Position numbers and translations under genes: made by a program. The notes beneath the pieces are model-generated. The model worked only from the letters and a program-made list of their open reading frames with translations, did not search any database and was not told the DNA's origin. Shown here one piece after another: positions 1 through 50,081 of a stretch of 64,000 nucleotides of DNA (position 1 is its first letter; each line of letters opens with the position of its first letter). Origin of the DNA: a virus; the IMG/VR virus record IMGVR_UViG_3300032235_001069, positions 21,693 through 85,692 of that record. One strand, given 5' to 3'.

Positions 1-225
1 CTCTATAGACCTCTTTTCAATTAACTGATTTTGATTTTGCATTTCTTCATTATCAACTATAATAGAATAATAAATACCATTTTTACTCAATGATGATATT
101 TTTTGGAGAAAACCTTTTTTATTAGCATCTATTCCTTTTAGTGCGGATAATGCGTTATTAATTTTTAATTTAAAAAAATTTCCAAAAATATGAGCTAATT
201 CCCCATGTAAATAAATTTTAGTCAT
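1..225 (-). CDS. Tail assembly protein I-like, second paralog (runs off window start)
   Basis: Read manually: MTKIYLHGELAHIFG...ALKGIDANKKGF, parallel to the N-terminus of 218..829 (MTTVKIYGLLSKEFG...IAIDAVKNGF). Confidence 0.75.
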   Translation of the reverse strand, partial: MTKIYLHGELAHIFGNFFKLKINNALSALKGIDANKKGFLQKISSLSKNGIYYSIIVDNEEMQNQNQLIEKRSIE

Positions 226-17224: not shown

Positions 17225-17768
17225 ATGCCTAAACGAAGAAGAAATTGCAGTTTTATTCACAGAATATTTTTGCGAACTTAAAAAATATGTTTTAAATTTT
17301 ACTAGTTGTGTTGATTTTGCTGAAGATTCAGCGCAATTGAGCTTCATGAAGCTTTGTAAAAGCAAGCCATTTTTTGAAGATCAAGAATCCGCAAAACATT
17401 GGCTGAAAAAAGTTGCAAGAAATTCCCTTTTTACTTTGCATAAAAAGAATAAGAAATATATCTTTATTGATCCTCAAGAAAGTAATTCTGAAATTCAAAA
17501 TCTTGAACCAATGCTTGATATTGTCAGCGGCTTTGAAAGCCTAGCTTCTTCAGAAGAAGAAGTTTCATGCAAAACAACTTTAGTTAGTTTAATGAACAAG
17601 CTAACCAAAAAACAAAAGGAAGTTTTGCGACTTAGATATTTTGAAAATCTTACTTACGAACAAATTGCACAAAAAACAAAAAATAAAGTTACAAATGTCG
17701 GCTTTCTCCTTAATGAAGGAAAAAGAAATTTAAGAAAATTCTGGGATAGTTACGCAAAAGCTCACTAA
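17214..17768 (+). CDS. ECF-type RNA polymerase sigma factor
   Basis: Region 2 'AEDSAQLSFMKL...WL.KVARN'; region 4 'LTKKQKEVLRLRYFENLTYEQIA'. Confidence 0.9.
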   Translation: MKTKCLNEEEIAVLFTEYFCELKKYVLNFTSCVDFAEDSAQLSFMKLCKSKPFFEDQESAKHWLKKVARNSLFTLHKKNKKYIFIDPQESNSEIQNLEPMLDIVSGFESLASSEEEVSCKTTLVSLMNKLTKKQKEVLRLRYFENLTYEQIAQKTKNKVTNVGFLLNEGKRNLRKFWDSYAKAH

Positions 17769-33794: not shown

Positions 33795-34718
33795 ATGTTT
33801 GACAACCTCATTGGACAATCCGAAATCAAAGATCAACTGGGCTTCTACTCGAAAGCCTATCAAAAGACTGGTACTGTGCCATTTATATTGCTGAATGGTG
33901 CTAAAGGCTTGGGTAAGACCGAGTTCCTAAAAGCATTCAGCAAGACTATCACCAATAGTGATGGCAAGCCGCGCCCCATGCTGGAACTAAACTCCAGCAC
34001 AATCAAGAACAATACAATGTTCTTTGAGCAGATCTTCCTACCCATCGTGCAGGGAAACGAAGTAACTCTTTTCTTCGATGAGTGCCATGCACTCCCCAAC
34101 GATCTGGTGATGGCATTCCCATCCATCCTCAATACAGAACGTACACCTTATAAGGAGTTCAACTGGAGAGAGTACACCTTTACTTTTGATTTCACTAAGA
34201 TCTCCATGATCTTTGCGACTACTGAGTTAGATAAACTATTTCCTCCTCTTAAGGATCGGCTGACTGTTCTTGATTTCAAACCATATAATCAAAATAAGTT
34301 AGCCGCAATCATCAAGGGTCGCTTGCCAGATGTAGAGTTCGAAGATGGTCTGCTGGAAGAGATTGCCACCACTACCAGAGGTAATGCGCGTGATGCAGTT
34401 AAGCGTGCAAAACAAATTGAGTTGTATTGTGAAACCAATAACTCTAATCTGTTTCTCAAAGATGAGTGGAATGATCTTCGCAAAGTGCTTGGTATCAAAC
34501 CTTTGGGGCTTTCTAATACAGAGTTGCAAGTGCTTGAGATTCTTAACACTAGGGGGCCATCTACCCTACAGACTATCGCAGCAGTAACTGGCATGAGTCG
34601 TACTGCAATCCAGAAGGATGCTGAACTGTATCTCCTACAGCGTGGACTCATGAAGATCAATGGTGTTCGTGAGCTTACCAAAGCAGGATCAGATCTAATC
34701 AAACAAATGTCAGAGTAG
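33795..34718 (+). CDS. ruvB: Holliday-junction branch-migration helicase RuvB-like
   Basis: FDNLIGQ, GAKGLGKT, FFDECH, FATT, PLKDR, RGNAR, LG....GL, E.YLLQ.G, G.R; start moved to ATG 33795 (TTG at 33759 is part of a TTGACA box). Confidence 0.85.
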   Translation: MFDNLIGQSEIKDQLGFYSKAYQKTGTVPFILLNGAKGLGKTEFLKAFSKTITNSDGKPRPMLELNSSTIKNNTMFFEQIFLPIVQGNEVTLFFDECHALPNDLVMAFPSILNTERTPYKEFNWREYTFTFDFTKISMIFATTELDKLFPPLKDRLTVLDFKPYNQNKLAAIIKGRLPDVEFEDGLLEEIATTTRGNARDAVKRAKQIELYCETNNSNLFLKDEWNDLRKVLGIKPLGLSNTELQVLEILNTRGPSTLQTIAAVTGMSRTAIQKDAELYLLQRGLMKINGVRELTKAGSDLIKQMSE

Positions 34719-34733
34719 AGAGTAGTCAAACAG

Positions 34734-34756
34734 CCCCCCTTCGAGTGAAGGGGGGT
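34734..34756 (+). terminator. Hairpin/terminator after ruvB
   Basis: CCCCCCTTC-GAGT-GAAGGGGGG. Confidence 0.65.
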
Positions 34757-34765
34757 AACTCTTTT

Positions 34766-35014
34766 ATGAAAGCGCAATACATCTTCAGACACATAAGCAA
34801 GAGAAAGTCAAGAACTATCTTGTTCCATTGCTTGTATGATCCCAAAACATTGCGCATTATTGCAATGAGTGCATTCAACTTCGACGATGGAGTAGCTAAA
34901 GAATGCGACTACTCGCTCTTCACCGACGAAGAGCTGAACTACACGCTCGCGTGGCTCGAACTAATGCTAGAGACTAAATCGTGGGAGGAAGATAAGCAGG
35001 AAGATAAAGAATAG
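34766..35014 (+). CDS. Hypothetical protein
   Basis: ORF from ATG 34766. Confidence 0.5.
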   Translation: MKAQYIFRHISKRKSRTILFHCLYDPKTLRIIAMSAFNFDDGVAKECDYSLFTDEELNYTLAWLELMLETKSWEEDKQEDKE

Positions 35015-35061
35015 TCAAGAGTAAAAATTAACAAAAATTATTCTAAATAAGACGAAATAAG

Positions 35062-35090
35062 TAGGCAAAAACTGCCAGGGGGAGCCCTGG
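35062..35090 (+). repeat. Left boundary element of cassette array (inverted repeat of 44630-44659)
   Basis: TAGGCAAAAACTG-CCAGGGGGAGCCCTGG. Confidence 0.8.
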
Positions 35091-35197
35091 TCAGAAAAGA
35101 CTACACCCCACCCTTTCGGGTGAGGTGTTTTTTATTGGGGGGAAATTTATTTACTTTTTATTCTTGCTTGCCAGTGCGAACACAACTAGTAGAACAA

Positions 35198-35752
35198 TTA
35201 AGATTTGCATTTGCTGGGGGCATATGGCTCTCCTGTTTCTAGGTTGATGAGGACAACGTCGTCGAGATGTCCTCCGTCTTTTGCGTTCTTGGCATAGGTA
35301 TCAAGCATAAGGCTTGGCGTTACATGTCTTGCATATACATAGATCTTGCCACTTGCAACGTTTCTGATTGCCCACTTGGCGTTCTTTGGTACGCAGAGCC
35401 ACTTGCTGCTGTCGTAGCATCTCTCGACAGGTATTCCCAGCTTCTTCATCCAAGACTTCCAAGTAGGCCCATGCCCCCAACCCTTGTTAACTTCCCAATC
35501 TAAAGCGTGCGCCCATTCGTGTAAAATAGTTTCTTTTGCTTTTTTTAAGAAGTTCGGGCTGTTCTTGTTTATGTGTATTATGTGGGTGGAAAGCTCGATT
35601 CGTTTTGTCTTTCCATTATCAGATCTCCAAGCCCTGCCCATTACAGTTCTAAGCCTTTTGTTCCATTTGATTTCCCACCCTTCTAGGATGGGATACTGGA
35701 GTTTGATCTGAGCAGAGATGTCTTTGAACAATGTATTTACTTCGGCAATCAT
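35198..35752 (-). CDS. SprT-like zinc metalloprotease
   Basis: WNKRL...GRA, TILHEWAHA, GHGPTWK. Confidence 0.85.
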   Translation of the reverse strand: MIAEVNTLFKDISAQIKLQYPILEGWEIKWNKRLRTVMGRAWRSDNGKTKRIELSTHIIHINKNSPNFLKKAKETILHEWAHALDWEVNKGWGHGPTWKSWMKKLGIPVERCYDSSKWLCVPKNAKWAIRNVASGKIYVYARHVTPSLMLDTYAKNAKDGGHLDDVVLINLETGEPYAPSKCKS

Positions 35753-35753
35753 A

Positions 35754-35939
35754 TTAGTCTTCGTTTCTAAATTTAATCTCATCTTGGATGTAGTCAAGCA
35801 AATTTAGGATACCATCCATATGTTCGCGCATTTCATCTGTCCACTCAATTTTCTCATCCATGAGTTTGTAGAGTGTTTGTTTTTGTTTGTCTAACAGAAC
35901 TGGACAAACTGTTATTTCGATGTCGTACAATTTATTCAT
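35754..35939 (-). CDS. Hypothetical protein
   Basis: ORF. Confidence 0.55.
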   Translation of the reverse strand: MNKLYDIEITVCPVLLDKQKQTLYKLMDEKIEWTDEMREHMDGILNLLDYIQDEIKFRNED

Positions 35940-35958
35940 ATTTTTTAGCAATTTAAAT

Positions 35959-36033
35959 TGGCGATTCTAGCTGGATTCGAACCAGCAATAATTCTTTAGA
36001 AGAGAACTGTGATGTCCATTTCACTATAGAATC
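35959..36033 (-). tRNA. tRNA-Arg(TCT)
   Basis: Reverse-complement cloverleaf, CTTCTAA loop, GCCA end. Confidence 0.9.
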
Positions 36034-36074
36034 TTTGTTCACTGGGATAAATTCAAAGTGTAAACACTTGAACT

Positions 36075-36560
36075 ATGGACAAGAGTATTTTAGCAGAGAT
36101 GATAAGTCAAGGATTTTCCACCAGAGAAATTTCGAAAAAAATGAATTGCGGCCAAACAAATGTTATGTATTGGATGCGAAAACATAATTTAAATATTTTA
36201 ACTAAAGTGAAGAGCGAAAAAACTTGTCCAAAATGCAAGCAAATTTTAGATCTTTCTTTTTTTTACCAAAGGAGAGGAAAAATTGGAGGATCAGTTTATT
36301 GCAAAGGCTGCACTAACTCACAAGCAATGGAGAGGCAGAAAAAATTAAAAATACAATGCGTTGAATACAAGGGTGGCTGTTGTCAAGTTTGTAATTATTC
36401 TAAATCTTTATCCGCTTTGGAATTTCATCACTTGAATCCAAGCGAAAAGGAATTTAGTTTATCTAGCAAAAAATCGTTTTCTTTCAACGAGCTGATAAAA
36501 AAGGAACTGGATAAATGCATTTTGCTTTGCGCAAATTGCCATAGGGAACAACATGACTAG
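36075..36560 (+). CDS. HNH homing endonuclease with N-terminal HTH; paralog of 5930..6274
   Basis: GGCCQVCNY.K..SALEFHH...KCILLCANCHRE. Confidence 0.85.
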   Translation: MDKSILAEMISQGFSTREISKKMNCGQTNVMYWMRKHNLNILTKVKSEKTCPKCKQILDLSFFYQRRGKIGGSVYCKGCTNSQAMERQKKLKIQCVEYKGGCCQVCNYSKSLSALEFHHLNPSEKEFSLSSKKSFSFNELIKKELDKCILLCANCHREQHD

Positions 36561-36892
36561 ACTGAGCTATGGGTACTGGAAAGATCAATGCTCTTGCGGT
36601 GATATTCTTCACCATAAACTCTTTCTGTCAAGACAATTTCGACTTTGCCTGACGGATAAACATACACCTCACCATAAGTGCCAAGAAAATAATCGAACTT
36701 TGGATAATGTTCTCTTAGAAAATCAGCAACTGCATCTCCGTAGTCGTCGCCCATCTTGACGCACGCGCCTTCCATATATGCTGCCGCATCAAACCATTCG
36801 AAGATACGGTCTTGAGCAGACCAGTTAAAGATGGCATAGTCTAGCTTACCACTCTTCAGAAACTCAACAAGATCAAGCAATGTCTTTTCCAT
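36557..36892 (-). CDS. Hypothetical early protein
   Basis: ORF directly after TTGCAT-N16-TATCAT promoter. Confidence 0.65.
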   Translation of the reverse strand: MEKTLLDLVEFLKSGKLDYAIFNWSAQDRIFEWFDAAAYMEGACVKMGDDYGDAVADFLREHYPKFDYFLGTYGEVYVYPSGKVEIVLTERVYGEEYHRKSIDLSSTHSSV

Positions 36893-36924
36893 ATGCGATA
36901 CATGATAGCCAGTGTTAGGGAGAA

Positions 36925-36999
36925 TGCAACACTTATTTCAAAAAATATTTACGCACTTGTGCGTAATAACACTTGACAGGGAGCCAGGGCTATCCCTGG
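36925..36999. repeat. Cassette-junction element A
   Basis: TTACGCAC-TT-GTGCGTAA; TTGACA; CCAGGG-CTAT-CCCTGG. Confidence 0.9.
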
Positions 37000-37022
37000 A
37001 ACGTAACCACCTCATTCTGAGG

Positions 37023-37108
37023 TGGTACGGGGAGTGGGACTCGAACCCACACGCTCTAACGAGCATCAAATTTTAAGTCTGATGTGGCTGCCATTACACC
37101 ATCCCCGC
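37023..37108 (-). tRNA. tRNA-Leu(TAA)
   Basis: Reverse-complement cloverleaf with long variable arm, CTTAAAA loop, CCA. Confidence 0.93.
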
Positions 37109-37534
37109 TTTTCTTTTCTTGTTTCTCCAGTTGTCTGTCAAAGCATGACAGTTGCAACATAAGAGTTGAAGATTTTCAAAATTGTTATTGGTTCTATTTC
37201 CATCTACATGGTGAAGCTCCAAAGGGATACTATCACTCAACCATTCACTTTGCAAGCATTTTTCGCATTTGTGGCCTTTTTCATTTATTAAATGAGAACG
37301 AAGATTCTTTGTTCTTTTGTAGGAAGACCAATCTTTAATCCTTTGATCTTTGCTCCAAAGTTGACCAGTGAAATGCGACGTTTCTAAATTTAGTTTAGCA
37401 ATCTTTGTCTTGACTGTATCAAAGTTTCCACCAGCTTCCTTTAGATCCAAAAATCTAAGGACTTCAGAAATGGATTTGCTTTTCTTAACCGCATTAATCA
37501 AATCCTCTTCTGTGTATCGTCTATACTTTCTCAT
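37094..37534 (-). CDS. HNH homing endonuclease (3' end overlaps tRNA-Leu)
   Basis: CEKC...LELHHVDGNRTNN..ENLQLLCCNCHALT. Confidence 0.9.
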   Translation of the reverse strand: MRKYRRYTEEDLINAVKKSKSISEVLRFLDLKEAGGNFDTVKTKIAKLNLETSHFTGQLWSKDQRIKDWSSYKRTKNLRSHLINEKGHKCEKCLQSEWLSDSIPLELHHVDGNRTNNNFENLQLLCCNCHALTDNWRNKKRKAGMV

Positions 37535-37597
37535 GCTTTATTTTACACTAAAAAGGTAGACGAAGAATCAATTTGATTGCGAGACTGCCGAAGAAAG

Positions 37598-37870
37598 TGG
37601 GGGAGGTGGGAATTGAACCCACGACCAAGCGATTATGCTTACTACTATAACTTTCGTTACCAGAATTTCTGTTTGTAGTCTGGACTATGCCTTTACCGTG
37701 GTATTTCTACTTTAGGTAGGTGATTATAGTCTCTACACGTTCCTCTTTCGAGGCTTCGCTCGACGTTGGGATTTTAAACCGTTCATCGAATTTACACCTT
37801 ACTAATTATTCGTTTCCGAATAATCGACCCATTATTAAGTCGCCTGCTCTTACCTCTGAGCTACTCCCCC
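37598..37870 (-). tRNA. tRNA-Ile2(CAT) split by a group I intron (exons 37838-37870 and 37598-37637)
   Basis: Spliced arm GGCGA-CTCATAA-TCGCT; G1-C72 paired; core matches bacterial ileX-type tRNA as recalled. Confidence 0.88.
37638..37837 (-). ncRNA. Group I self-splicing intron, 200 nt, no ORF
   Basis: 5' exon ends at U33; IGS GGGTCG pairs with CGACT; R box GTAGAGACTA; S box AAGGCATAGTCC; terminal G. Confidence 0.88.
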
Positions 37871-37877
37871 TAAAAAC

Positions 37878-38198
37878 TTACAATTCAAAAGCGAGAATGT
37901 TATCTGCTGGAAGAAAGTTCAACTCTGCCTCACCTTCATATAAGGAATATCCTAGCACAGTCAAAGCGAAGACGCAAGCATTATCGTAAGAAAAATCTCG
38001 AAAGGAATGAATCTCTACACCATCATCTTTGTCCACGATGTAATAGTCTTTAATCTCATCAGACAAAGATTTAGGTTCTACACGAAAGCCCAAATGTGTA
38101 AGGGCTTGTTCTTCAGCGGTTTCCGCTGAATCTTTGTCAATCATTACTTGTTCCTGAAAGGAAGTATCATCTTCGATTAGTGTGTATGGTTCGTGCAT
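37878..38198 (-). CDS. Hypothetical acidic protein
   Basis: ORF; start uncertain (38198 or 38264). Confidence 0.55.
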   Translation of the reverse strand: MHEPYTLIEDDTSFQEQVMIDKDSAETAEEQALTHLGFRVEPKSLSDEIKDYYIVDKDDGVEIHSFRDFSYDNACVFALTVLGYSLYEGEAELNFLPADNILAFEL

Positions 38199-38256
38199 AT
38201 TTATTTCTTTAATGTTAAGCATATTACTACAAGGGTTACGATTAGAGCATCCATAA

Positions 38257-38952
38257 TTAGACATGAATTACAAAGCCCGAATTATCTTTTTTTGCTGGTC
38301 CCTTGGCACGCAGTCCCACGATTGCGTTCTTTGGATCAAGGAAGCGGAGATCGTTTTCATCTCCGTCAATGACTTTGAAACCTTCGTGTTCTGTTGGCAA
38401 GGGTTGATCTTTTTTAGTGGAGAAAACAAAAGCTGAATTGTTTCCTTTTGCTAAAGCTGCGAACGATTTAACTTGAGACACTTTAGTCTCTGCGCGTGAA
38501 AAAGTCAAGTGGTAATTTGAAATTGTCAAGTCCAAACGATCAAACAATTTTATGTAATCATAGAACTGCACACCAGAAAAATGCTGGAAAATGTTTTTTC
38601 CCTTGTGGATAATGTCTTCCCATCTGATATCAGAAGTCAAGTTGAGACGAAACACAGCTTGCAAGCTTTTCTTTGCGGCTGATTTGATTCCTGTCTCAAT
38701 TTCTTTGATTAAATTATCCATGAACAAAGCCTGCTCTTCAAAGAAGCTTTTTGTTTTTTCGATTCGCTGTGGCTGAACCATGACACCCATGCCTGCCAAG
38801 TTAAGGCAAGAATCTGTGCAACCTTTTGATCTGCCTTGACAAACTTCATACCCGCTAATGTTAGCGGGTGCAAAGTGAATGCCAAAGGTTTCGTATCCGA
38901 AGGATCTGCCCTTCAGTGTTTTGTAATTAGCAACGGTGAGTATTTTTTGCAT
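38257..38952 (-). CDS. GP88-like phage protein
   Basis: C...S.GC...CL, RLN.TSD, FYDY.K, YHLTFS, DGDENDLRFLD, GL.AKG. Confidence 0.7.
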   Translation of the reverse strand: MQKILTVANYKTLKGRSFGYETFGIHFAPANISGYEVCQGRSKGCTDSCLNLAGMGVMVQPQRIEKTKSFFEEQALFMDNLIKEIETGIKSAAKKSLQAVFRLNLTSDIRWEDIIHKGKNIFQHFSGVQFYDYIKLFDRLDLTISNYHLTFSRAETKVSQVKSFAALAKGNNSAFVFSTKKDQPLPTEHEGFKVIDGDENDLRFLDPKNAIVGLRAKGPAKKDNSGFVIHV

Positions 38953-38980
38953 GACGTAAGAATATCACTAGCAAGGGTTC

Positions 38981-39078
38981 GTGCAACAATTATTTCGCAA
39001 AATATTTACGCCTTTAGGCGTAATAGTTCTTGACATCCCAGCCAGGGCTACCCCTGGCCCCCACCCGATGGGTGGGGG
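38981..39078. repeat. Cassette-junction element B
   Basis: TTACGCCT-TT-AGGCGTAA; TAGTTCTTGACA; CCAGGG-CTAC-CCCTGG; GC hairpin. Confidence 0.9.
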
Positions 39079-39131
39079 TCAGCTTCCCGATAGTGTTGGT
39101 AGTCAGTTAAACAAACCAAAAAACAAACCAA

Positions 39132-39386
39132 CTATCTATTTGGAAGAATGGAATTGTCCAAGATTCTGTCAAGGTAGAACATTCCGAAGTGTGGTTGCTC
39201 CACCTTACCGTTCTTTGCTACTATGTAGAGAGTGACAGCTTCAGGTGGGCAATGGTTAGTTCCACCTTTTGATCCTTTCTTTACGCCAGTACGAACGGTG
39301 TAGGTGTTTGTTTCACCTTTCTTGTTGTGATACTTAATCGAAAAGAACTTTCCGTTTGTTGTTGCGATAATGCGTTTGCCAATCAT
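39132..39386 (-). CDS. Small SH3/WYL-like beta protein
   Basis: GKFFSI.Y..K.GE.......GVKK. Confidence 0.6.
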   Translation of the reverse strand: MIGKRIIATTNGKFFSIKYHNKKGETNTYTVRTGVKKGSKGGTNHCPPEAVTLYIVAKNGKVEQPHFGMFYLDRILDNSILPNR

Positions 39387-39390
39387 AATG

Positions 39391-39642
39391 TTATTCCTCG
39401 TCTTCGTCGTCAAAATCTTCGTCCTCGTCGTCCCAATCATCTGGTTCTGTGGTGTTCATCGCAATGGTGGCGAGCAGATGATCGTAGTCTCCGCTTTGCG
39501 CTTCTTCTAGAACCGCACGAACTTCTTCTTGTGACCAGCCTTGGCGAAGCGCATTGCTTCTCCATGTTCCCATGATCACGAATGCATTGCCATCGAGGCC
39601 GACCAACTGCATCTTAACTTTCTTGGTTTTTGTGTTTTGCAT
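39391..39642 (-). CDS. Small conserved phage protein with acidic tail
   Basis: LVG.DGNAF.IMG...A....GW..EE...EA.SGDYDHLL. Confidence 0.75.
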   Translation of the reverse strand: MQNTKTKKVKMQLVGLDGNAFVIMGTWRSNALRQGWSQEEVRAVLEEAQSGDYDHLLATIAMNTTEPDDWDDEDEDFDDEDEE

Positions 39643-39732
39643 GTCGCTTGTATTGTTTTTTGCTTGGTTGTACGACTCGCAACATTCTGTTGCCCCATCG
39701 TAAAGTTTTTTGATAGGTTACTCCATCAACTT

Positions 39733-39975
39733 TTAGTTGTTTCTTTTTGGAGTCCATACTTTGAGCATAGCCTCATCCTTCATAATGTCAATACCGAATC
39801 CTAAAGTCTGGAAAGTATTTCTGAGAGTGTAGGCTTGGAGTTCAAGAATCTTTTTCATTTCGCTAGTTGACATTGCATCGCCAACAGCTTCCTGCGTAGC
39901 CCTGTGGAATGCGTAAAGCATTTCACAGAACTGGTTTACCAACGGGGTCAACTCTTCAATAGTGCTTTTGTTCAT
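39733..39975 (-). CDS. Hypothetical early protein (leaderless)
   Basis: TTGCGC-N16-TATGCT-TCTCAC-ATG. Confidence 0.65.
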   Translation of the reverse strand: MNKSTIEELTPLVNQFCEMLYAFHRATQEAVGDAMSTSEMKKILELQAYTLRNTFQTLGFGIDIMKDEAMLKVWTPKRNN

Positions 39976-40003
39976 GTGAGAAGCATATACAGAGCAAACG
40001 AAT

Positions 40004-40100
40004 GCGCAACATTTATTTCAAAAATATTTACGTCCTTGGACGTAATAGTTGTTGACAGTCCAGCCAGGGGTAGCCCTGGACCCCCGCCTTTCGGCGGGAG
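40004..40100. repeat. Cassette-junction element C
   Basis: TTACGTCC-TT-GGACGTAA; TAGTTGTTGACA; CCAGGG-GTAG-CCCTGG; hairpin. Confidence 0.9.
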
Positions 40101-40116
40101 CCCATTCGTATGGAAA

Positions 40117-40422
40117 TTAATGTGCGACTACTTCTGCTTCGTCGATTTCTATAGAGAAGTCTCCACCACCAAAGGAGAATTCAAGCTCATTACCCGTAAG
40201 GGAAACTTCTTGAGGAAGCCTGCGATCTGTTTTATGGTTAAGTAGAACGCTGTGATCCATCCCATCTTTCCACCTTTCGAGGTGAACATTAGTGGGAACG
40301 AAGTGGGAGACATGATTCCAGAGAATCAATCTTTCTCCCTTTTTGATTGCTCTCTTGACTCTCTCAACGTGAGCGTGTTTGACTTTGATTGTGATGTTGG
40401 TGTTTCCAATGTTTGTTTGCAT
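40117..40422 (-). CDS. Hypothetical early protein (leaderless)
   Basis: TTGCAC...TATGCT-TCTCAC-ATG. Confidence 0.65.
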   Translation of the reverse strand: MQTNIGNTNITIKVKHAHVERVKRAIKKGERLILWNHVSHFVPTNVHLERWKDGMDHSVLLNHKTDRRLPQEVSLTGNELEFSFGGGDFSIEIDEAEVVAH

Positions 40423-40450
40423 GTGAGAAGCATAGCAAAAGCTCTCATGC

Positions 40451-40544
40451 GTGCAACAATTTTAATTAAAAAAAATTACGCACCTGTGCGTAATAGTTGT
40501 TGACAGGAAAGCCAGGGCCCTGGACCCCGCCTTGCGGTGGGGTC
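40451..40544. repeat. Cassette-junction element D
   Basis: TTACGCAC-CT-GTGCGTAA; TTGACA; CCAGGGCCCTGG (core absent); hairpin. Confidence 0.9.
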
Positions 40545-40552
40545 TGGTTCTT

Positions 40553-40762
40553 TTACGCTTGTTTGATTCTCGCCTCTACGAGCATCTCATTGAACTGGTC
40601 AAGCACTTTCTGCTTGTTGCCTCTCAAACCAAACTCCTTTTTGATTTGAGCATATGCGGAACATCCTTTGATCGGATAGATTCCTTTTGTTTCGAGTTTC
40701 AGGGCGCTTGCCAGCATCAGGAGGCGATAAGCGGAGATTTGTTGTGGTGTGTCTAGTGTCAT
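40553..40762 (-). CDS. Hypothetical early protein
   Basis: ALKLE.KG......SAY..IKKEFGL.G.K..VL.Q. Confidence 0.65.
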   Translation of the reverse strand: MTLDTPQQISAYRLLMLASALKLETKGIYPIKGCSAYAQIKKEFGLRGNKQKVLDQFNEMLVEARIKQA

Positions 40763-40763
40763 A

Positions 40764-40967
40764 TTAGGTGTAGCATACTGGGTGGATGTCATTCCTGCAA
40801 CCATTATATTTTCTGTTCATCATAATGGAATGGGTGTGCATGACTCTTTTGAGCCTCTGCTTGGATTCTGTCTTGACCTTCTTCAACTTGGAAAGCTCCA
40901 TCTGCAGATAGGTAATCTCATCAATGCTGAGACTTTTTGCGGCTTCAATGATTTGTTTTTTATTCAT
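40764..40967 (-). CDS. Hypothetical early protein
   Basis: ORF in cassette. Confidence 0.5.
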   Translation of the reverse strand: MNKKQIIEAAKSLSIDEITYLQMELSKLKKVKTESKQRLKRVMHTHSIMMNRKYNGCRNDIHPVCYT

Positions 40968-40972
40968 AAGAA

Positions 40973-41308
40973 TTAGCGAAAGACTCTTGTCAAGTGATTA
41001 TTGACACCGTTCTTGAAAAGCTCATAGTCAACGCAGTCAACCGCATCCAACTTGTACCCACCGATATTCCATTCAAACAAAACGTCTGGGCTGGATGGTA
41101 CACGCTTCCATGCGTAGATGGTGGCGACTGTATCATTGGGGAACTTTAAGCGCCATTCGATGTTAACTTTTTCGCTTTCATCGATTGGATTATTATGCTT
41201 GTCAGGCGCACCGAATACAGCAACCAATTGGTCGTATGTGCATGAGATGTAACCTTTGAGCGAGGTTCCGTTGATGAGTGGCGTTCTTCTAACTGTTGTA
41301 GTTGTCAT
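40973..41308 (-). CDS. Conserved small phage protein
   Basis: GTSLKGY....Y.QL...FG.P...KV..EW......ATIY.WK.....W.IGG. Confidence 0.75.
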   Translation of the reverse strand: MTTTTVRRTPLINGTSLKGYISCTYDQLVAVFGAPDKHNNPIDESEKVNIEWRLKFPNDTVATIYAWKRVPSSPDVLFEWNIGGYKLDAVDCVDYELFKNGVNNHLTRVFR

Positions 41309-41337
41309 GGATAGAAAGATAGCACAGGAAAGAGTGC

Positions 41338-41412
41338 GTGCAACTTATTTTTCAAAAATAATTACGCCCTTGGGCGTAATAGTGCTTGACAGATCCCCAG
41401 GGCTACCCCTGG
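41338..41412. repeat. Cassette-junction element E
   Basis: TTACGCCC-TT-GGGCGTAA; TTGACA; CCAGGG-CTAC-CCCTGG abutting tRNA-Lys 3' end. Confidence 0.9.
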
Positions 41413-41416
41413 GCGT

Positions 41417-41491
41417 TGGTGGACAGGATGAGACTCGAACTCATAACCAACGCCTTAAAAGGGCGCTGCTCTACCATTGAGCTACCTGTCC
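41417..41491 (-). tRNA. tRNA-Lys(TTT)
   Basis: Reverse-complement cloverleaf, CTTTTAA loop, CCA. Confidence 0.95.
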
Positions 41492-41559
41492 CTTTGTGCC
41501 AGAGCCTCCCCTGCACCCGCAGGGGAGGATGGATGACACAACACACCTAACCACAGAAA

Positions 41560-41868
41560 TTATTTTCTTGCTACCTCAAAGCAGTGAGCCGCATGGAGTT
41601 CCAGATGTTTGCGGATGTCTTTAATCTTTTGCTTGACCTCATCTCTTTGAGAGACTGCCATGTTCCAACTCTCATCACCCTTTGGGTAGTAGTCTCGCTT
41701 GTGGAACTCAACCGCAAAAAACTTTTCAGAGAATTGTTCTAACGCACGAAGTGCATCGAAGTATTGTCCACCTAGCGCTTTACCGCTATTCCCATTCATG
41801 TGGATAAATGGAAAGCAAACAGAAGGATTATCAAGCTGAACTTGTGATTGTGCTGTTTCGGAGATCAT
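41560..41868 (-). CDS. Hypothetical early protein
   Basis: P.IH.NG.S...L...FH.RDYYP. Confidence 0.65.
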   Translation of the reverse strand: MISETAQSQVQLDNPSVCFPFIHMNGNSGKALGGQYFDALRALEQFSEKFFAVEFHKRDYYPKGDESWNMAVSQRDEVKQKIKDIRKHLELHAAHCFEVARK

Positions 41869-42020
41869 TGTTGCAAGTATGTTTGGATTTTTTCTTTTAG
41901 TTCAATGAGGAAGTTTTCTTCCACGTTCAATTCGTATGAGAGCTTATCTCTTAAGTCTGCATCTGTCAAGCAATGTTTGCAGATTTCGAGGGCTTTGGTG
42001 ATGTCTTCTGGTGTTAACAT
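41865..42020 (-). CDS. Hypothetical early protein
   Basis: ORF from MLTPED. Confidence 0.5.
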   Translation of the reverse strand: MLTPEDITKALEICKHCLTDADLRDKLSYELNVEENFLIELKEKIQTYLQQ

Positions 42021-42021
42021 A

Positions 42022-42219
42022 TTATGCGTATTTGGCTTCGTACTCTGCATTGCAGATGACATGATCAAGCCAGATCTGAAACTTCTTGAGATTCCATACT
42101 CCGCTCTTGACCCATTCATAGGCTTGTTCGGAGGTAATGCTCAGATAGCCTTCTCTGTCAGTTGATTTGATGTCGTGTTTGTTCATGCCTTCTAGTGTTA
42201 GCATATTATGCACTTTCAA
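42022..42219 (-). CDS. Hypothetical early protein
   Basis: YEWVKSG.W..K.F..W; start uncertain. Confidence 0.55.
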   Translation of the reverse strand: MKVHNMLTLEGMNKHDIKSTDREGYLSITSEQAYEWVKSGVWNLKKFQIWLDHVICNAEYEAKYA

Positions 42220-42526
42220 TCATGCTCATGAGCATTACCTTTACGTTGACTTCCTGCAAAACAATAAACTTGAGTGTTGAATTAATGCATGAGGTGAGTT
42301 CGACGAATCCATCAGCATAAAGTTTTGCGCCACAATCAAATTTAAACTTTATTTCTGCTCCATCATTGCCACAAAACAAACCAAACTCGTCAAGAGATTC
42401 TGAGTCGTTGTTGTAGTACCAGATTTCTGATCTGCCTTTGTATGCGAGTCCCCAAGAACTTTCGAGGATGTTTCGCAGGTTTGTGGCATTGATTGGTTTT
42501 GGTTCTGCTTTCAATGGGTTGTTCAT
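42206..42526 (-). CDS. Hypothetical early protein (leaderless)
   Basis: First gene after TTGCGC promoter. Confidence 0.6.
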   Translation of the reverse strand: MNNPLKAEPKPINATNLRNILESSWGLAYKGRSEIWYYNNDSESLDEFGLFCGNDGAEIKFKFDCGAKLYADGFVELTSCINSTLKFIVLQEVNVKVMLMSMIESA

Positions 42527-42556
42527 GTTTAGAACTCTATCATGGGTTTTGATTCG

Positions 42557-42654
42557 CGCAACATTTATTTATCAAAAAATTACGCACTTAGTGCGTAATA
42601 GTTCTTGACAGTCGAGCCAGGGGTAGCCCTGGCCCCAACCCTTTCGGGTTGAGG
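42557..42654. repeat. Cassette-junction element F
   Basis: TTACGCACT-T-AGTGCGTAA; TAGTTCTTGACA; CCAGGG-GTAG-CCCTGG; CCCCAACCCTTTCGGGTTGAGG. Confidence 0.9.
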
Positions 42655-42662
42655 CGGTTATG

Positions 42663-42938
42663 CTAGTCTTCCAATTCGTAGGGTCGAATCTCGCGATCAA
42701 AAGCGTGCCACTCGCTGACCTCTTTTTCCTCCTCTTCTTCTTCGTCCCCACCGAAGAGCGAGTCCCACTCTTCGGCGGTTATGCCTGACTTAATGAACTC
42801 CCGCTCGTCGGGAGTTAAGTTAGGGAACGCATCTTGCAGCAGAGCGCCTGCTGCATAGAGGTCGAGCTGCGTCTGCGTGATGGGAAGATCAAGCGTGTTG
42901 ACTTCCCCCGATACCCACGATGTGCGTGTGATGTTCAT
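42663..42938 (-). CDS. Conserved small phage protein
   Basis: TLDLPIT......G.L.Q.AFPNL..DEREFI.SGIT..EW. Confidence 0.75.
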   Translation of the reverse strand: MNITRTSWVSGEVNTLDLPITQTQLDLYAAGALLQDAFPNLTPDEREFIKSGITAEEWDSLFGGDEEEEEEKEVSEWHAFDREIRPYELED

Positions 42939-42947
42939 GTTTTTTTA

Positions 42948-43130
42948 TTATTTGTTATTGACTTGACGGATAGAAGAAACTGGTGGCCATTCGGGCTTTT
43001 CGCCATTGATCAATCTGATCATGTACAAACGCTCTTCGATTAAACACTCAATTGCGCTTTCTAGCTGGCGCAACGAATCGAGGTCGCTGAAGTTCTGCTT
43101 AATGAGGTCGATTAGAGGGTTCACGTTCAT
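42948..43130 (-). CDS. Hypothetical early protein
   Basis: First gene of cassette. Confidence 0.5.
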   Translation of the reverse strand: MNVNPLIDLIKQNFSDLDSLRQLESAIECLIEERLYMIRLINGEKPEWPPVSSIRQVNNK

Positions 43131-43183
43131 GGAAGAATCATCTCACACTTTTGTTTTTTAACAATAAAAAAGAGCAAAAAAAT

Positions 43184-43258
43184 TTACGTTACAAGCGTAA
43201 TAGTTGTTGACAGCCAGTCCAGGGGTAGCCCTGGCCTCCAACCCATTCGGGTTGAGGG
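43184..43258. repeat. Cassette-junction element G
   Basis: TTACGTT-ACA-AGCGTAA; TAGTTGTTGACA; CCAGGG-GTAG-CCCTGG; hairpin. Confidence 0.9.
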
Positions 43259-43270
43259 CTTTAGCTCTGT

Positions 43271-43531
43271 CTACTTAGCCAAGTCAAAGAATGGGCCGCT
43301 GAACTGGATCTGCCGTTCGTGCGCAAGTGCTTGCGCCCGTTCACGTTCCTCTTCGTCTGCCACCTGCTGATTGAGGATATGCGCTTCCTGCAACATTGCG
43401 CTGCACTCATGCGCAAGCATGAAAAGCAATGTGTGTTGCTCGCAAGTGAGGTTAAGTGGGTCGAGCCCCGCAACCATTTTGCGGGACTCAATGAGGACTG
43501 CGTTTTGCATGAGTTGAAGTGCGTTTTGCAT
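43271..43531 (-). CDS. Hypothetical early protein
   Basis: ORF from MQNALQ. Confidence 0.55.
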   Translation of the reverse strand: MQNALQLMQNAVLIESRKMVAGLDPLNLTCEQHTLLFMLAHECSAMLQEAHILNQQVADEEERERAQALAHERQIQFSGPFFDLAK

Positions 43532-43542
43532 AGGATGTATGA

Positions 43543-43752
43543 TTAGCGGTTCTGGAGCTGTTCGATTCTGTCTGCGATATGTTCTTTGGCCTCTGGCACA
43601 AAAGTTGCCATGCCTATCAAGAAACCTTCGAGGTGGCCAACCATGCACGCATCGACAAGTTTCTCGCCATGCCTTTTCGCGATGTCCGCCCTAGTGGTGG
43701 CCATGAAGGTTTCGATCATCTGAACTGCGTCTGTGTACCTGTTGTTTTCCAT
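43543..43752 (-). CDS. Hypothetical early protein (leaderless)
   Basis: TTGCGG...TATGCT/TATTGT then ATG. Confidence 0.6.
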   Translation of the reverse strand: MENNRYTDAVQMIETFMATTRADIAKRHGEKLVDACMVGHLEGFLIGMATFVPEAKEHIADRIEQLQNR

Positions 43753-43841
43753 GCCCAAACAATAGCATAAAAAGAAAAGACCGCAACACTCTTTTTTCAT
43801 GCCAAGCGTGAAAAAAAGTTCATAAAAATTTTCACTTAATA

Positions 43842-43904
43842 GCGTAATAGTTCTTGACACCCAGCCCAGGGGTAGCCCTGGACCCCAACCCTTTCGGGTT
43901 GAGG
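43842..43904. repeat. Cassette-junction element H
   Basis: GCGTAATAGTTCTTGACA; CCAGGG-GTAG-CCCTGG; CCCCAACCCTTTCGGGTTGAGG. Confidence 0.9.
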
Positions 43905-43918
43905 TGTTTGCGCTTATG

Positions 43919-44185
43919 CTATTCTTCCATCATGCACTCGATGGCTGCTTTAATCTTTGCTAGTGAATCTGGGTCATTATATCCTTGACGGATTTGCTGA
44001 ATGATTCCTTCGCATGATTGCGTATTCTCGACGAACGTGCATAACTCCTTGAAGTCTGGGTCGCTTGGAAGCGACAGCGCCCAATTCAGACTCTGCTGAA
44101 TTGCGCGAAGTGCGTTTAGATCCCTGTCTTCGTAAGTATCGGTGGTTTCAGGATAGTCGTACATAACTGAGAGAATCATATACAA
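43919..44185 (-). CDS. Hypothetical early protein
   Basis: Single-gene cassette; start uncertain. Confidence 0.55.
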   Translation of the reverse strand: MYMILSVMYDYPETTDTYEDRDLNALRAIQQSLNWALSLPSDPDFKELCTFVENTQSCEGIIQQIRQGYNDPDSLAKIKAAIECMMEE

Positions 44186-44223
44186 GAAAGTGTGCGGTTC
44201 AACATAAAAATTTTGCTTTTGAT

Positions 44224-44287
44224 GCGTAATAGTTCTTGACAGCCAGTCCAGGGGTAGCCCTGGCCCCCAACCCTTTCGGGTTGAGGG
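44224..44287. repeat. Cassette-junction element I
   Basis: GCGTAATAGTTCTTGACA; CCAGGG-GTAG-CCCTGG; same hairpin as F and H. Confidence 0.9.
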
Positions 44288-44299
44288 TTTTGCGTATGC

Positions 44300-44539
44300 T
44301 TACTTACCGCATGCGGCAAGTGCATCTTGCGCGTACCGCTCGCGCTCCTCAAACCATTCGACGGAGGCGACATCCGCCTCCTGCGTGAAACGCGCCTCCT
44401 GCGCGTTCGCGCATGCGAAGGATGCAATTTGATGGAGGAGCGCGATATGCTCCTCCGTCAAGGAGGCGCAATTGAGGTCGCGCACGCAGGCGCGAACGTG
44501 GATGAGGACCGCTGTGAGATTTGACGATGTATTAACCAT
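44300..44539 (-). CDS. Hypothetical early protein (GC-rich)
   Basis: Single-gene cassette from MVNTSS. Confidence 0.55.
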   Translation of the reverse strand: MVNTSSNLTAVLIHVRACVRDLNCASLTEEHIALLHQIASFACANAQEARFTQEADVASVEWFEERERYAQDALAACGK

Positions 44540-44605
44540 GCGGACACAGTACAAAAAGAATGCTGTGATTGGAAGGATTATTTTGCAAAAAATTTCTCAC
44601 TCTAT

Positions 44606-44700
44606 GCTTAATAGTTCTTGACAGGGTGGCCAGGGCTCCCCCTGGGCAAATTTTGCCTAGTGAGTTTTTGCCGCTTTTGGGACTAGGCACTTTTTGCCTA
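44606..44700. repeat. Cassette-junction element J plus two TAGGC/GCCTA palindromes (right boundary)
   Basis: GCTTAATAGTTCTTGACA; CCAGGG-CTCC-CCCTGG; GGCAAATTTTGCCTAG; CTAGGCACTTTTTGCCTA. Confidence 0.88.
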
Positions 44701-44710
44701 CTGCTCCAGG

Positions 44711-44824
44711 GATCATGCACGCCATGCATCATGCACTGGCCGCATGTGCATGCACCGCATGCATACGATGCACCCGCCGCATGGCCATGCATGGCCCGCA
44801 TGCCATGCACAGCCCGCATGCACC
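44711..44824. repeat. CATG/TGCA-dense non-coding tract
   Basis: 12 CATG and about 10 TGCA counted in ~114 bp. Confidence 0.85.
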
Positions 44825-44943
44825 TACTTCTTACTCATGAAGTATTCTGCAGCTTCCGCAACGAAGGCGACTAGGGCGATGAATACCATCGGGAAAAGTA
44901 CGAAGATTGATGCGGCGAGGATGTCAAGGATTTGTGTTTTCAT
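44824..44943 (-). CDS. Small single-TM protein
   Basis: MKTQILDILAASIFVLFPMVFIALVAFVAE. Confidence 0.5.
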   Translation of the reverse strand: MKTQILDILAASIFVLFPMVFIALVAFVAEAAEYFMSKK

Positions 44944-44999
44944 GGTGTGTTTTTTTGTGTGGTTTGAAGGGGGGCTTTCGCCCCCCCTTTGTGGTTTGC

Positions 45000-45251
45000 T
45001 TAGGCGTTTGCGTATTCTCTGATAAGCTTTAGTCCGTTCACTTCCAAGGTGCGGATTTTTGCCGCACTGGTGAAGCTGCGCGTCCCCTTGGCCGTTGCTA
45101 GGATGTATTGCGTGCCAGCGGCGCATGCCTTAGCTTCAACCAACGTGCCTTCCAGCGTCTTGAATTGCCCGTTGTCATTCACGCGATCATTTGACGATGC
45201 GTGATAGGTGACTTTGATGTTCGATCCGTTTGCGATTGTTAGGTTTGCCAT
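45000..45251 (-). CDS. Hypothetical early protein (leaderless)
   Basis: TTGTTT...TATACT-TCTCACAT-ATG. Confidence 0.65.
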   Translation of the reverse strand: MANLTIANGSNIKVTYHASSNDRVNDNGQFKTLEGTLVEAKACAAGTQYILATAKGTRSFTSAAKIRTLEVNGLKLIREYANA

Positions 45252-45293
45252 ATGTGAGAAGTATAGGTGAGAGGGTGAGAGAAACAAGCTTTT

Positions 45294-45500
45294 TTAAGCT
45301 TTTTTTACCGAATGATCAAAGTGCATACTGCACTCTTTTGCATATTCTTCGTTAGTGAGGATAAGCGCGAAGCTGATATCGAAGCGACCGCTTGCAAACA
45401 GCTCTGCGCGAACGGCTTTCGCCTCCTCGCGAGTCTCGCAACGGATCGCCTCATGCCCGAAGTTTCCTGCCTTGTTTAAGCTAACGTATAATGTGAACAT
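45294..45500 (-). CDS. Hypothetical early protein (leaderless)
   Basis: Near-identical promoter block to 45251. Confidence 0.6.
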   Translation of the reverse strand: MFTLYVSLNKAGNFGHEAIRCETREEAKAVRAELFASGRFDISFALILTNEEYAKECSMHFDHSVKKA

Positions 45501-45603
45501 GAGAGAAGTATAGGTGAGCGAGAGAGCGAAACAAGCTTTTTTGTGTTTTTATGCTACTTTTTTTTGCACGCGCAAAGCACTAAGAGAGAGAGTGTTAGGA
45601 AGG

Positions 45604-45804
45604 TCATTTGCCTTGACCCTCCATCTTTTCGATCCTCGCTTTCAGAAACTCTTGAATCTGAGGGTGATGCGATGCCAAGATTTGCAAGGTGCTTTGAAGG
45701 TGTGCAATCGTGCACGTTTCAACATACTCAGGTGCGTAAGTGTTTTCGGCGTTGCGCTTTACGCATGCGACGAAGTTTTCTGCGAGTGTTAGTGGGTCTT
45801 GCAT
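45604..45804 (-). CDS. Hypothetical early protein
   Basis: ORF. Confidence 0.5.
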   Translation of the reverse strand: MQDPLTLAENFVACVKRNAENTYAPEYVETCTIAHLQSTLQILASHHPQIQEFLKARIEKMEGQGK

Positions 45805-45862
45805 AAGTAGGTGAATGAGAGAAGGTTAGAGAGAGGGGATGGAACCCTCTCCGTTTCAGTGA

Positions 45863-46078
45863 CTAGTGAATGTAATCGTGAGCGGCTTCTTGGCAATCGT
45901 CTGAAGGAATGCTTTCAAGCTCCTCAGCAGTAAGCGCAACGTACTCATTGCCAACCTTTTTCAAAGCCCCGATAATGAATGCGTCACAGAAGTCTGGATA
46001 ATCGCGCATATCGATCCCATCCATCTCAATGTCAAAACACTCGATCACTTCGCCGTTCACAGTCAATTTCATATCCAT
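45863..46078 (-). CDS. Small acidic phage protein (leaderless)
   Basis: GID.RDYPDFCDAFI...LT.EEL; TTGCGG...TAGTCT-TCTCAC-ATG. Confidence 0.7.
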   Translation of the reverse strand: MDMKLTVNGEVIECFDIEMDGIDMRDYPDFCDAFIIGALKKVGNEYVALTAEELESIPSDDCQEAAHDYIH

Positions 46079-46330
46079 GTGAGAAGACTAAGCGAAGCGC
46101 TTTCGAACCGCAACATTTATTTAATGTTTTTTTACCCCCCCCATTATTTGAAAAATGCATGCGGTGCATCGGCGGCCAGGCCAGGGGGGACTATTTTTTC
46201 AGTCTACCCCCAAAAATTCACCATTCCAAACTACCCCCCCCTTTTTTTTAAAATCATTATAATCTCTCCCTATACAACATATAACTAAAGTCAAAAAAAA
46301 TCGGACGCTACTATTCGTGTAACCTTTTTT

Positions 46331-49688: not shown

Positions 49689-50081
49689 ATGGCATCAATA
49701 TTCTGTCCAAGCTGCGGAAGTAAATCTGAATATCAGTTCGCGCCACCGAATTTCTGTTCGAAATGTGGTCAACCTTATGCTGGAAGAACTTCGCATAAAA
49801 AAATGCCAACTTCTGCTCAAGTAAAATTGCGCAAAGATCAACCAGACGAACAAGATTCTATTGAAGACGATTATGATGAAGAAAGTTATGCCGAAGATAC
49901 ATTTTCTGACTCTACTAGAGTGCCAAGACTTAGATCGCTTCAAGTAGATATAGACAACTCATCAGATGTAAGAGTGGTCAAAATGTCCGATTTGCTTAAT
50001 GGAAATTTTGAACAGCAGTCATTAAAATTAGGCGAACGTCAAAGCATAGATGAGGTAATGGATGAGCGAAAATCAAACTAA
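49689..50081 (+). CDS. Zinc-ribbon protein with acidic tail
   Basis: FCPSCG...PNFCSKCG. Confidence 0.7.
   Translation: MASIFCPSCGSKSEYQFAPPNFCSKCGQPYAGRTSHKKMPTSAQVKLRKDQPDEQDSIEDDYDEESYAEDTFSDSTRVPRLRSLQVDIDNSSDVRVVKMSDLLNGNFEQQSLKLGERQSIDEVMDERKSN

Follow-up and report, generated by a model that had tools for sequence, protein, structure and literature searches.

In T4-type phages (RB49/phi1, T4/PST and KVP40/nt-1), ORFans in hyperplastic regions are flanked by PeSLs, elements in which, following the definition of Arbiol et al. (2010) and Comeau et al. (2014), a G/C stem-loop that terminates transcription is combined with an AT-rich tract and an early promoter of sigma70 type (PMC2839356, PMC4122927). 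Related phages differ by indels and replacements that arise through recombination between PeSL copies, with crossovers in or beside the stem-loop, and exchange between neighbouring copies yields mini-circles (PMC2839356, PMC4122927). Stem-loop termination and promoter activity were demonstrated with reporter assays in the defining paper, and a protein binding the conserved stem has been a speculation of the PeSL authors (PMC2839356, PMC4122927). Here we describe an array of small, putatively early genes separated by a comparable linker at positions 35062-44700 of the window, by which we mean the whole 64,000-nucleotide stretch of DNA analysed. The window corresponds to bases 21,693-85,692 of one 85.7-kb (85,692-bp) virus contig (IMG/VR record IMGVR_UViG_3300032235_001069; CheckV completeness 59%), whose source is a lytic, uncultivated freshwater tailed phage.

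A preliminary description of this DNA held that the linker matches nothing known; it fits, instead, the architecture of the T4-type PeSLs (PMC2839356, PMC4122927). Like them, it has a sigma70-like promoter pattern (38 of 44 copies, with TTGCRC rather than TTGACA at −35), an AT-rich tract directly before the −35, and a stable G/C-tract stem-loop upstream of the promoter (hairpin A), to which palindrome B and hairpin C are added here. Many copies in the same orientation flank ORFans, and relatives differ by four whole-cassette indels and one relocation, with crossovers in or beside the motif in three of the indels. In contrast to PeSLs, the linker shows no sequence similarity to any cultured phage, lies in a non-T4 backbone with a J-type tail protein, has in addition an invariant interrupted palindrome of 16 bp, a conserved box and as many as three hairpins, places its promoter 6 nt from the ATG (predicted leaderless), and carries tRNA genes as travelling cassettes as well. 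A blastn search with the element against 50,697 phage records gave no match; because of this and of the non-T4 backbone, we regard the element, as far as its sequence tells, as an analogue or variant of PeSLs and not as a homologue. A search of this phage for Gp23 also gave no match, nor did its positive control. In the literature searched, PeSLs are reported for T4-like phages only. The new finding is thus a PeSL-like mobile regulatory cassette linker outside T4-like phages, plus an unexplained invariant palindrome.

In phage SPO1, the host-takeover module is made up of 24 small genes, grouped into 12 operons that are each driven by a strong early promoter. The present array is similar in its dense, very short operons of small unassigned genes, apparently provided with their own early promoter and terminator and read by host polymerase; SPO1 genes differ in having strong Shine-Dalgarno sites, and to our knowledge that module has not been reported to share a palindrome or linker among its operons or to shuffle cassettes through one. 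Integron attC arrays resemble it in their co-oriented small cassettes, imperfectly palindromic repeats and content that varies among relatives. However, no IntI or other tyrosine recombinase was found: PF00589 was absent from the genome of the window (G000) and from three related viral contigs (G001, G002 and G003), records estimated to be 19-59% complete, and positive controls matched. Moreover, every cassette here has its own promoter-like site at the start codon in place of a common Pc, the repeat lacks the R/L box and GTTRRRY organisation, and the crossovers are compatible with plain homologous recombination. The separate promoters, the failure to find a recombinase and the missing attC organisation show that the array is not integron-like; as noted in the preliminary description, no integrase was visible in the window, nor was one found in the records searched.

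Our preferred explanation, which we hold to be fairly probable on the sequence evidence, is that the linker is a PeSL-like composite terminator/promoter boundary between early units dependent on host RNA polymerase, that the units are shuffled by recombination inside the linker, and that B is a protein docking site. The upstream half would close the previous cassette by stem-loop A or a tRNA and, in about half of the copies, also by hairpin C and a T-run. The downstream half would open the next cassette, with the T-rich tract as an UP-like element followed by TTGCRC-N16-TAnnnT 6 nt before the ATG. The core of ~70 nt, present in a single orientation, would serve as portable homology, and recombination machinery would exchange, delete, duplicate and relocate whole promoter–gene–terminator cassettes by crossovers within it. 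The protein at B might regulate the early units globally or insulate them, or it might render the site prone to recombination.

Anatomy of the linker

The anatomy, copy number and conservation pattern of the linker are directly visible in the sequences. Scanning with the core box 18-mer GCGTAATAGTTSTTGACA (≤3 mismatches) gave 10 matches, all on the plus strand, starting at 36961, 39018, 40040, 40488, 41374, 42593, 43195, 43842, 44224 and 44606; shuffles give 0.09. The pattern CCAGGG-N0-6-CCCTGG, which covers palindrome B, gave 11 matches against 0.01 expected (starts 35075, 36984, 39042, 40064, 40512, 41397, 42617, 43219, 43866, 44248 and 44630). All copies share one orientation, and no further copy lies elsewhere in the 85,692-bp contig. 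The preliminary description had placed ten full copies and a partial one here, each between the stop of a minus-strand unit and the promoter of the next, with units of 1-4 small open reading frames (ORFs) and/or tRNAs; all of this is borne out. Pattern scans of IMG/VR recovered the same arrays in six more viral contigs, giving 79 B copies over seven genomes, the window's 11 included.

The linker measures ~130 bases, of which ~70 nt form the conserved core. Read 5'→3' on the minus strand, the stop of the previous unit is followed by hairpin A, palindrome B, 5-8 nt, the box, hairpin C, a T-tract, the promoter and the ATG. The plus-strand order given earlier (A/T tract, TTACG hairpin, box, palindrome, GC hairpin) was correct, and its box-palindrome gap of 5-6 nt becomes 5-8 nt. 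Hairpin A is G/C-rich, with dG ≤ −12 in 56 of 67 copies and 26 different stems, mostly of CCCC..GGGG type, and has no sense-strand U-run; some copies carry a tRNA 3' end in its stead, or a terminator plus a second TTGACA. The box has the consensus (T/C)GTCAA-N4-TATTA(C/T)G. The TTACG hairpin, here hairpin C (TTACG..CGTAA), is present as it had been placed, although it is well formed in only 35 of 67 copies. The outer pairs of C do not change, whereas the inner ones covary, position 9 being A-T in 20 copies, C-G in 11 and T-A in 3. Because hairpin A occurs with 26 stems and the inner pairs of C covary, selection in both appears to act on pairing, not on sequence. With its T-run, hairpin C was called as a minus-strand intrinsic terminator at 6 of the 10 window junctions, and it is hairpin C that shows the rho-independent pattern of a G/C hairpin and then a sense U-run (35 of 67 copies overall). 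The sense RNA of the junction folds into three hairpins, with z = −3.4 to −6.5.

An invariant AAATTTTT tract with more A/T lies directly before the −35, and we take this T-rich stretch to resemble a full UP element. At the sequence level, TTGnnn-15..18-TAnnnT is found ahead of the first ORF in 38 of 44 copies from four genomes, with the consensus TTGCRC-N16-TAnnnT; the spacer is 16 nt in 31 of the 38, and 6 nt separate the −10 from the start codon in 29. Since a −10 at −12 to −7 puts +1 on the A of the ATG, the cassette mRNAs are predicted to be leaderless. Promoter and terminator activity and early timing would likewise follow from these patterns. Outside the array, a Shine-Dalgarno-like 4-mer at −22 to −5 precedes only 6 of 66 genes of ≥120 aa, which makes it probable that translation initiation in the host is not dependent on Shine-Dalgarno sites. 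The regions upstream of the phage genes are A/T-rich. One metatranscriptome run covered several cassettes; its contigs break at the repeats and hold no strand or end information, and it was not used for starts or ends.

The phage encodes two sigma-factor-like ORFs, one at 17175-17768 (+) with regions 2 and 4, and one at 50062-50766 (+), ~4 kb beyond the array, with region 2 only; the latter scores just under the cut-off in G000 and is kept in all four relatives. Both are probably middle or late sigma factors. A search for a T7-type RNA polymerase gave no match, and its positive control gave none either. The two sigma-like genes and the lack of a T7-type polymerase hit fit early genes that are read by the host holoenzyme.

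The sigma-like proteins also bear on a further reading, in which the plus-strand TTGACA and the distal B arm, 15-18 nt apart, would form an antisense promoter by which a phage sigma-like factor shuts off the early cassettes. The TTGACA-CCCTGG spacing is indeed 15-18 nt in the first of two sub-families of the element, and hairpin A with a weak plus-strand T-run could end a short antisense RNA. However, the second sub-family swaps GTCAA/TTGAC for GCATTATG and retains B and C, and CCCTGG is unlike any known −10 element, which makes an antisense promoter very improbable.

The long-class junctions (window 43790-43830; L023 ~12951 and 13752; L025 11308-12208) carry an additional conserved segment, (C/T)TTGGCA(T/C)G-A-rich-TTTTTGAC/TGTTGCG, between the T-run and the −35, which may be a second operator. 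A sigma54 promoter in these junctions (TGGCAYG...TTGC) was dismissed by inspection, the spacing being ~10 nt and not 4. Hairpin promoters of the N4 or crAss type, for a virion RNA polymerase, were also rejected, as the giant 2,892-aa ORF is a J-type tail protein and the search for a T7-type polymerase, whose control was likewise negative, gave no match.

Palindrome B, a probable protein docking site

The two 6-nt arms of B are constant in the 79 copies, with one clear single-mismatch copy, and the 4-nt centre occurs as 14 different sequences, among them the inverted pairs CTAC/GTAG and GCAC/GTGC. CCAGGG-N4-CCCTGG, which had been assigned to each copy, holds throughout except that window copy 40512 lacks the 4-nt centre. 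Within the array, the hexamers CCAGGG and CCCTGG occur inside B only. Besides the B arms, the parts constant across carriers are TATTA(C) and the T-tract; in the second sub-family GTCAA is replaced by GCATTATG, and B and hairpin C are kept. Constant arms that flank a centre of set length but variable sequence, together with the lack of covariation, would be expected of a double-stranded DNA site bound by a dimeric protein, and B most likely serves as a docking site for such a protein. Protein-bound RNA hairpins such as boxB have the opposite pattern to invariant arms and a free centre. B persists even in the distal partial copy, which has no promoter after it; for this reason we consider it tied to cassette boundaries and not to promoter activation. 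An analogy for B only is offered by the OB sites of KorB in plasmid RK2, multi-copy palindromic operators of a global regulator. Both are invariant palindromes of ~13-16 bp in about a dozen copies at variable distances upstream of promoters; in contrast to RK2, the available sequence yielded neither a ParB/KorB-like nor an HTH_3 protein.

The same data bear on a chiefly RNA-level function, in which the three hairpins would act as a processing, stability or antitermination signal, with hairpin B bound as RNA, in the manner of T7 RNase III sites or the lambda nut and HK022 put sites. Such a function would agree with the strict single orientation relative to the genes, the covariation in hairpins A and C, the strong predicted folds, and the position of B, which abuts hairpin A or a tRNA 3' end and persists at the array end with no promoter after it. 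However, a lambda-type nut/boxB site has a conserved loop and a covarying stem, whereas the stem of B is invariant without covariation in 79 copies and its 14 loops vary and even invert (CTAC/GTAG). In addition, Rfam over 34-47 kb returned only tRNAs and no family matching the element, and a promoter of its own for each cassette means that antitermination or processing is not needed for expression. We therefore judge an RNA-level role unlikely, if the strongest of the alternatives. Of the readings of B, we rank highest that of a site at which a regulator or insulator docks and whose proneness to recombination is a by-product; an RNA-level role, a dedicated recombination site and an antisense promoter follow in that order.

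Three other leads were pursued and set aside. The resemblance of TGTCAAGAACTAT to an IHF site involves three mismatches to the consensus, and sub-family 2 lacks GTCAA. Restriction-site avoidance leaves no clear depletion, with 3 half-site hexamers outside the array against 7.5 expected. A host or prophage lead from bacterial genomes came down to scattered single matches, and a cluster in Nostocales proved to be one orthologous terminator hairpin and not the element.

Cassette exchange among related phages

To compare genomes, the arrays were cut at B and their cassettes were matched, so that cassette polymorphism and crossover intervals could be read off directly. The core is repeated 10-16 times per genome, and the number, content and order of cassettes differ among carriers, many cassettes being found in one genome only. 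Between G001 and the window, shared cassettes are 88-98% identical; G001 has four whole extra cassettes, and three other cassettes differ only in their 3' parts. In G003 the tRNA-Lys cassette adjoins cassette 1 and does not follow cassette 5, and many cassettes are unique. Orthologous junctions are nonetheless stable between genomes, and the copies are not homogenised.

Four whole-cassette indels distinguish the window from G001, and in three of them the crossover falls at B or in the adjoining 18 nt. At junction 8 (43866), the upstream half corresponds to G001 copy 12049 and the downstream half to copy 11628, with the switch within the 16 nt of B. At junction 10 (44630; G001 copies 13752 and 13387), the switch lies within CCCTGGCCACCCTGTCAA. 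At junction 4 (40512), where G001 has one extra cassette, it lies at the centre of B, with 4 nt missing. At the fourth indel, junction 44248, the sequence from B downstream equals G001 copy 12428, the upstream part matches neither copy, and homology ends at the edge of B. Of 56 homology-block ends in six genome pairs, 22 fall within the element, where 10.5 would be expected (P = 2.6e-4; the element spans 17-29% of the arrays), and they cluster at both edges of the conserved core. Joints at element coordinates (36968>41415, 41390>42616, 43212>42627 and 44286>45264) are present in contigs of three independent DNA runs; they are indicative only, as the placement of such metagenome-contig joints is ambiguous owing to the repeats. 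A contig of run X2 deletes exactly 247 bp between two promoter repeats that lack B (joint 45292>45540). Eight paralogous protein pairs occur in different cassettes of one genome, as unequal exchange would give.

These results support the earlier proposal of an array of early-gene cassettes and, with relatives that differ in content and order and breakpoints that concentrate in the element, also the proposed shuffling. An active acquisition system, as suggested before, is not demanded by anything found: recombination between repeats suffices for the exchange, because a cassette has been deleted between B-less promoter repeats as well (45292>45540).

The crossovers could nevertheless reflect dedicated site-specific, integron-like cassette exchange, with B as the crossover site of a recombinase or structure-specific nuclease from the missing ~40% of the genome or from the host. 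All resolvable crossovers include or touch B, with invariant inverted arms and a short variable centre it is built much like a recombinase core site, its copy at the distal array end leaves each cassette flanked by B on both sides, and the records are only 19-59% complete. Yet searches of the four incomplete records for tyrosine recombinases, serine recombinases and Y1-HUH enzymes found none, whereas positive controls matched. Tyrosine recombinases need identical overlap regions in partner sites, and 14 centre variants would leave most pairs of copies incompatible for such an enzyme. Furthermore, B is the longest perfect identity among the copies, where homologous recombination would cross anyway; the deletion at 45292>45540 did without B; and the stable, unhomogenised orthologous junctions speak against it too. 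We regard such a system as improbable, and give the same slight weight to B being the recognition or crossover site of a dedicated protein, whether a recombinase or a nuclease acting on an extruded cruciform. Were it true, we would be dealing with a phage 'early-gene integron' that works without a tyrosine integrase, and not just with a set of passively recombining repeats.

Several observations weigh against our preferred explanation of a PeSL-like boundary with a protein at B. Hairpin C is missing from about half of the copies, and at many junctions termination must for this reason depend on A and B or be leaky. The −35 TTGCRC matches TTGACA at only 3 of 6 positions. B lies at 45, 54-56 or 78-84 nt from the −35; since these classes do not all share one helical phase, a classical face-of-helix activator is disfavoured. 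As to the ligand of B, the available sequence yielded no HTH_3 or ParB/ParB_N/KorB-like protein, and the flanking and conserved early proteins gave no DNA-binding match against Pfam or PHROGs. Finally, ~60% of homology-block ends fall inside cassettes, outside the element, which is therefore a preferred exchange point and not the sole one.

Two HNH genes and an intron-bearing tRNA, found in the window only, accompany some of the breakpoints inside cassettes. The HNH-type ORFs, whose motifs were identified by eye, lie at 36075-36560 (+) and 37094-37534 (−), within cassettes 1 and 2, and one of them adjoins the intron-bearing tRNA. Both regions look like recent mobile insertions, because they are missing from the orthologous G001 cassettes. 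A 200-nt group I intron interrupts the tRNA-Met(CAT) at 37597-37870 (minus) between positions 33 and 34, as seen with ARAGORN (introns allowed) and, at a score under the gathering threshold, with Rfam RF00028 (36.3 bits, E 6.6e-8); the last nucleotide of the 5' exon is U and that of the intron is G. Contigs of other metagenomes carry an intron-less allele (joint 37637>37868), and G001 lacks this tRNA.

Further tRNAs in the cassettes are Arg, Leu and Lys, and the cassette ORFs are mostly small and without match to any known family. The small helical cassette proteins fall into paralogous families whose members are scattered over different cassettes (for example 43130-42948 with 44179-43919, and 45804-45604 with 43800-43543), and several cassettes in all carriers begin MVN(S/T)S.

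Individual junctions and genome context

The whole early-gene block (35062-46330) is transcribed leftward on the minus strand in ~14 short units of small ORFs and tRNAs, and the features below are on that strand. The partial copy at the distal end (35062-35134), also present in G001 and G003, has hairpin A at 35103-35128, which looks like a bidirectional terminator, and B at 35075-35090, then a T-run, with neither box nor promoter. Junction 1 (36890-37025) comprises A at 37007-37025, abutting tRNA-Leu, B at 36984-36999, the box at 36961-36978 and C at 36949-36966 with a T-run; its promoter, TTGCAT-16-TATCAT, precedes the ATG at 36892. Junctions 2 and 3 share one layout: the former (38950-39078) has A at 39058-39078, B at 39042-39057, the box at 39018-39035, C at 39006-39023 with a T-run, and TTGCAC-16-TATTCT-6-ATG (38952); the latter (39973-40101) has A at 40080-40101, B at 40064-40079, the box at 40040-40057, C at 40028-40045 with a T-run, and TTGCGC-16-TATGCT-6-ATG (39975). 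At junction 4 (40420-40547), A (40524-40547) is followed by the B copy with the deleted 4-nt centre (40512-40523), the box (40488-40505), C with a T-run (40475-40494) and TTGCAC-16-TATGCT-6-ATG (40422). The tRNA-Lys 3' end replaces A at junction 5 (41306-41416), where B occupies 41397-41412, the box 41374-41391 and C 41361-41380, with a T-run and TTGCAC-16-TATCTT-7-ATG (41308).

Junction 6 (42524-42655), with an RNA fold of z = −6.5, consists of A (42633-42654), B (42617-42632), the box (42593-42610), C with a T-run (42579-42599) and TTGCGC-16-TAGAGT-7-ATG (42526). Hairpin C is weak at junction 7 (43128-43258), in which A lies at 43235-43258, B at 43219-43234 and the box at 43195-43212, with a T-run and the promoter TTGTTA-16-GATGAT-6-ATG (43130). 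The next two lack C: junction 8 (43750-43905), of the long class, has A at 43882-43905, B at 43866-43881, the box at 43842-43859, an extra TTGGCATGAAAAAAGAG segment and TTGCGG-16-TATTGT-6-ATG (43752), and junction 9 (44163-44287) has A at 44264-44287, B at 44248-44263, the box at 44224-44241 and TTGAAC-16-TATGAT-10-ATG (44165). Junction 10 (44537-44700) forms the proximal array end, with GGCA..TGCC mini-hairpins in place of A, B at 44630-44645, the box at 44606-44623 and TTCCAA-17-TACTGT-6-ATG (44539). Beyond it, at 45252-45550, two putative leaderless-type early promoters without palindrome or box (45.25 and 45.5 kb) share repeat D6, TTGTTT-N-TATACT-TCTCAC-ATG.

The motif GTAGGCAAAAA(C/G)TGCC stands at both array ends (35062-35077 and 44683-44698) in inverted orientation, each time adjoining a B copy with a GGAG-type centre; it is kept in G001 and G002, not in G003, and may be just a pair of similar small terminator hairpins. 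A 130-bp tract at 44700-44830 consists of overlapping GCATGC/CATGCA-type motifs, with CCGCATGCA ~10 times, between junction 10 and a 39-aa membrane-peptide ORF (44824-44943, minus), and its sequence differs in relatives.

The early block has 42-50% GC in a contig of ~33% GC, and the high GC of window 34000-46000 recurs in relatives, whose array loci have 46-50% GC. Genes elsewhere in the contig include those for the 2,892-aa J-type tail protein, a large terminase, the two sigma-like proteins and PhoH. Terminase matches in the 1,064-aa ORF at 52751-55945 (+) are confined to residues 480-860, and residues 60-560 align weakly to phage helicase/RecA-like proteins; the protein may be a fusion. The neighbouring gene previously called ruvB is, according to PHROGs, an AAA+/clamp-loader-like ATPase. 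No close cultured relative was found: the best TerL match is 22% identical, and megablast of the array matched only a 36-nt stretch. Near-identical DNA is present in public runs of 11 studies, and the labelled runs are mostly freshwater metagenomes.

PeSL-like cassettes are now seen in an unrelated, freshwater-widespread lineage, where they look independently built. A 16-bp palindrome invariant over 79 copies implies a sequence-specific factor, and the rigid promoter-ATG spacing predicts a whole early regulon of leaderless mRNAs in a phage nearly without Shine-Dalgarno sites. The arrays also amount to a catalogue of ~60 small, putatively early proteins in exchangeable units that can be screened for function. 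The occurrence of such cassettes in this lineage suggests that terminator–promoter linkers are a general route by which large lytic phages maintain a fast-evolving host-takeover or anti-defence toolbox while their core genes stay undisturbed.

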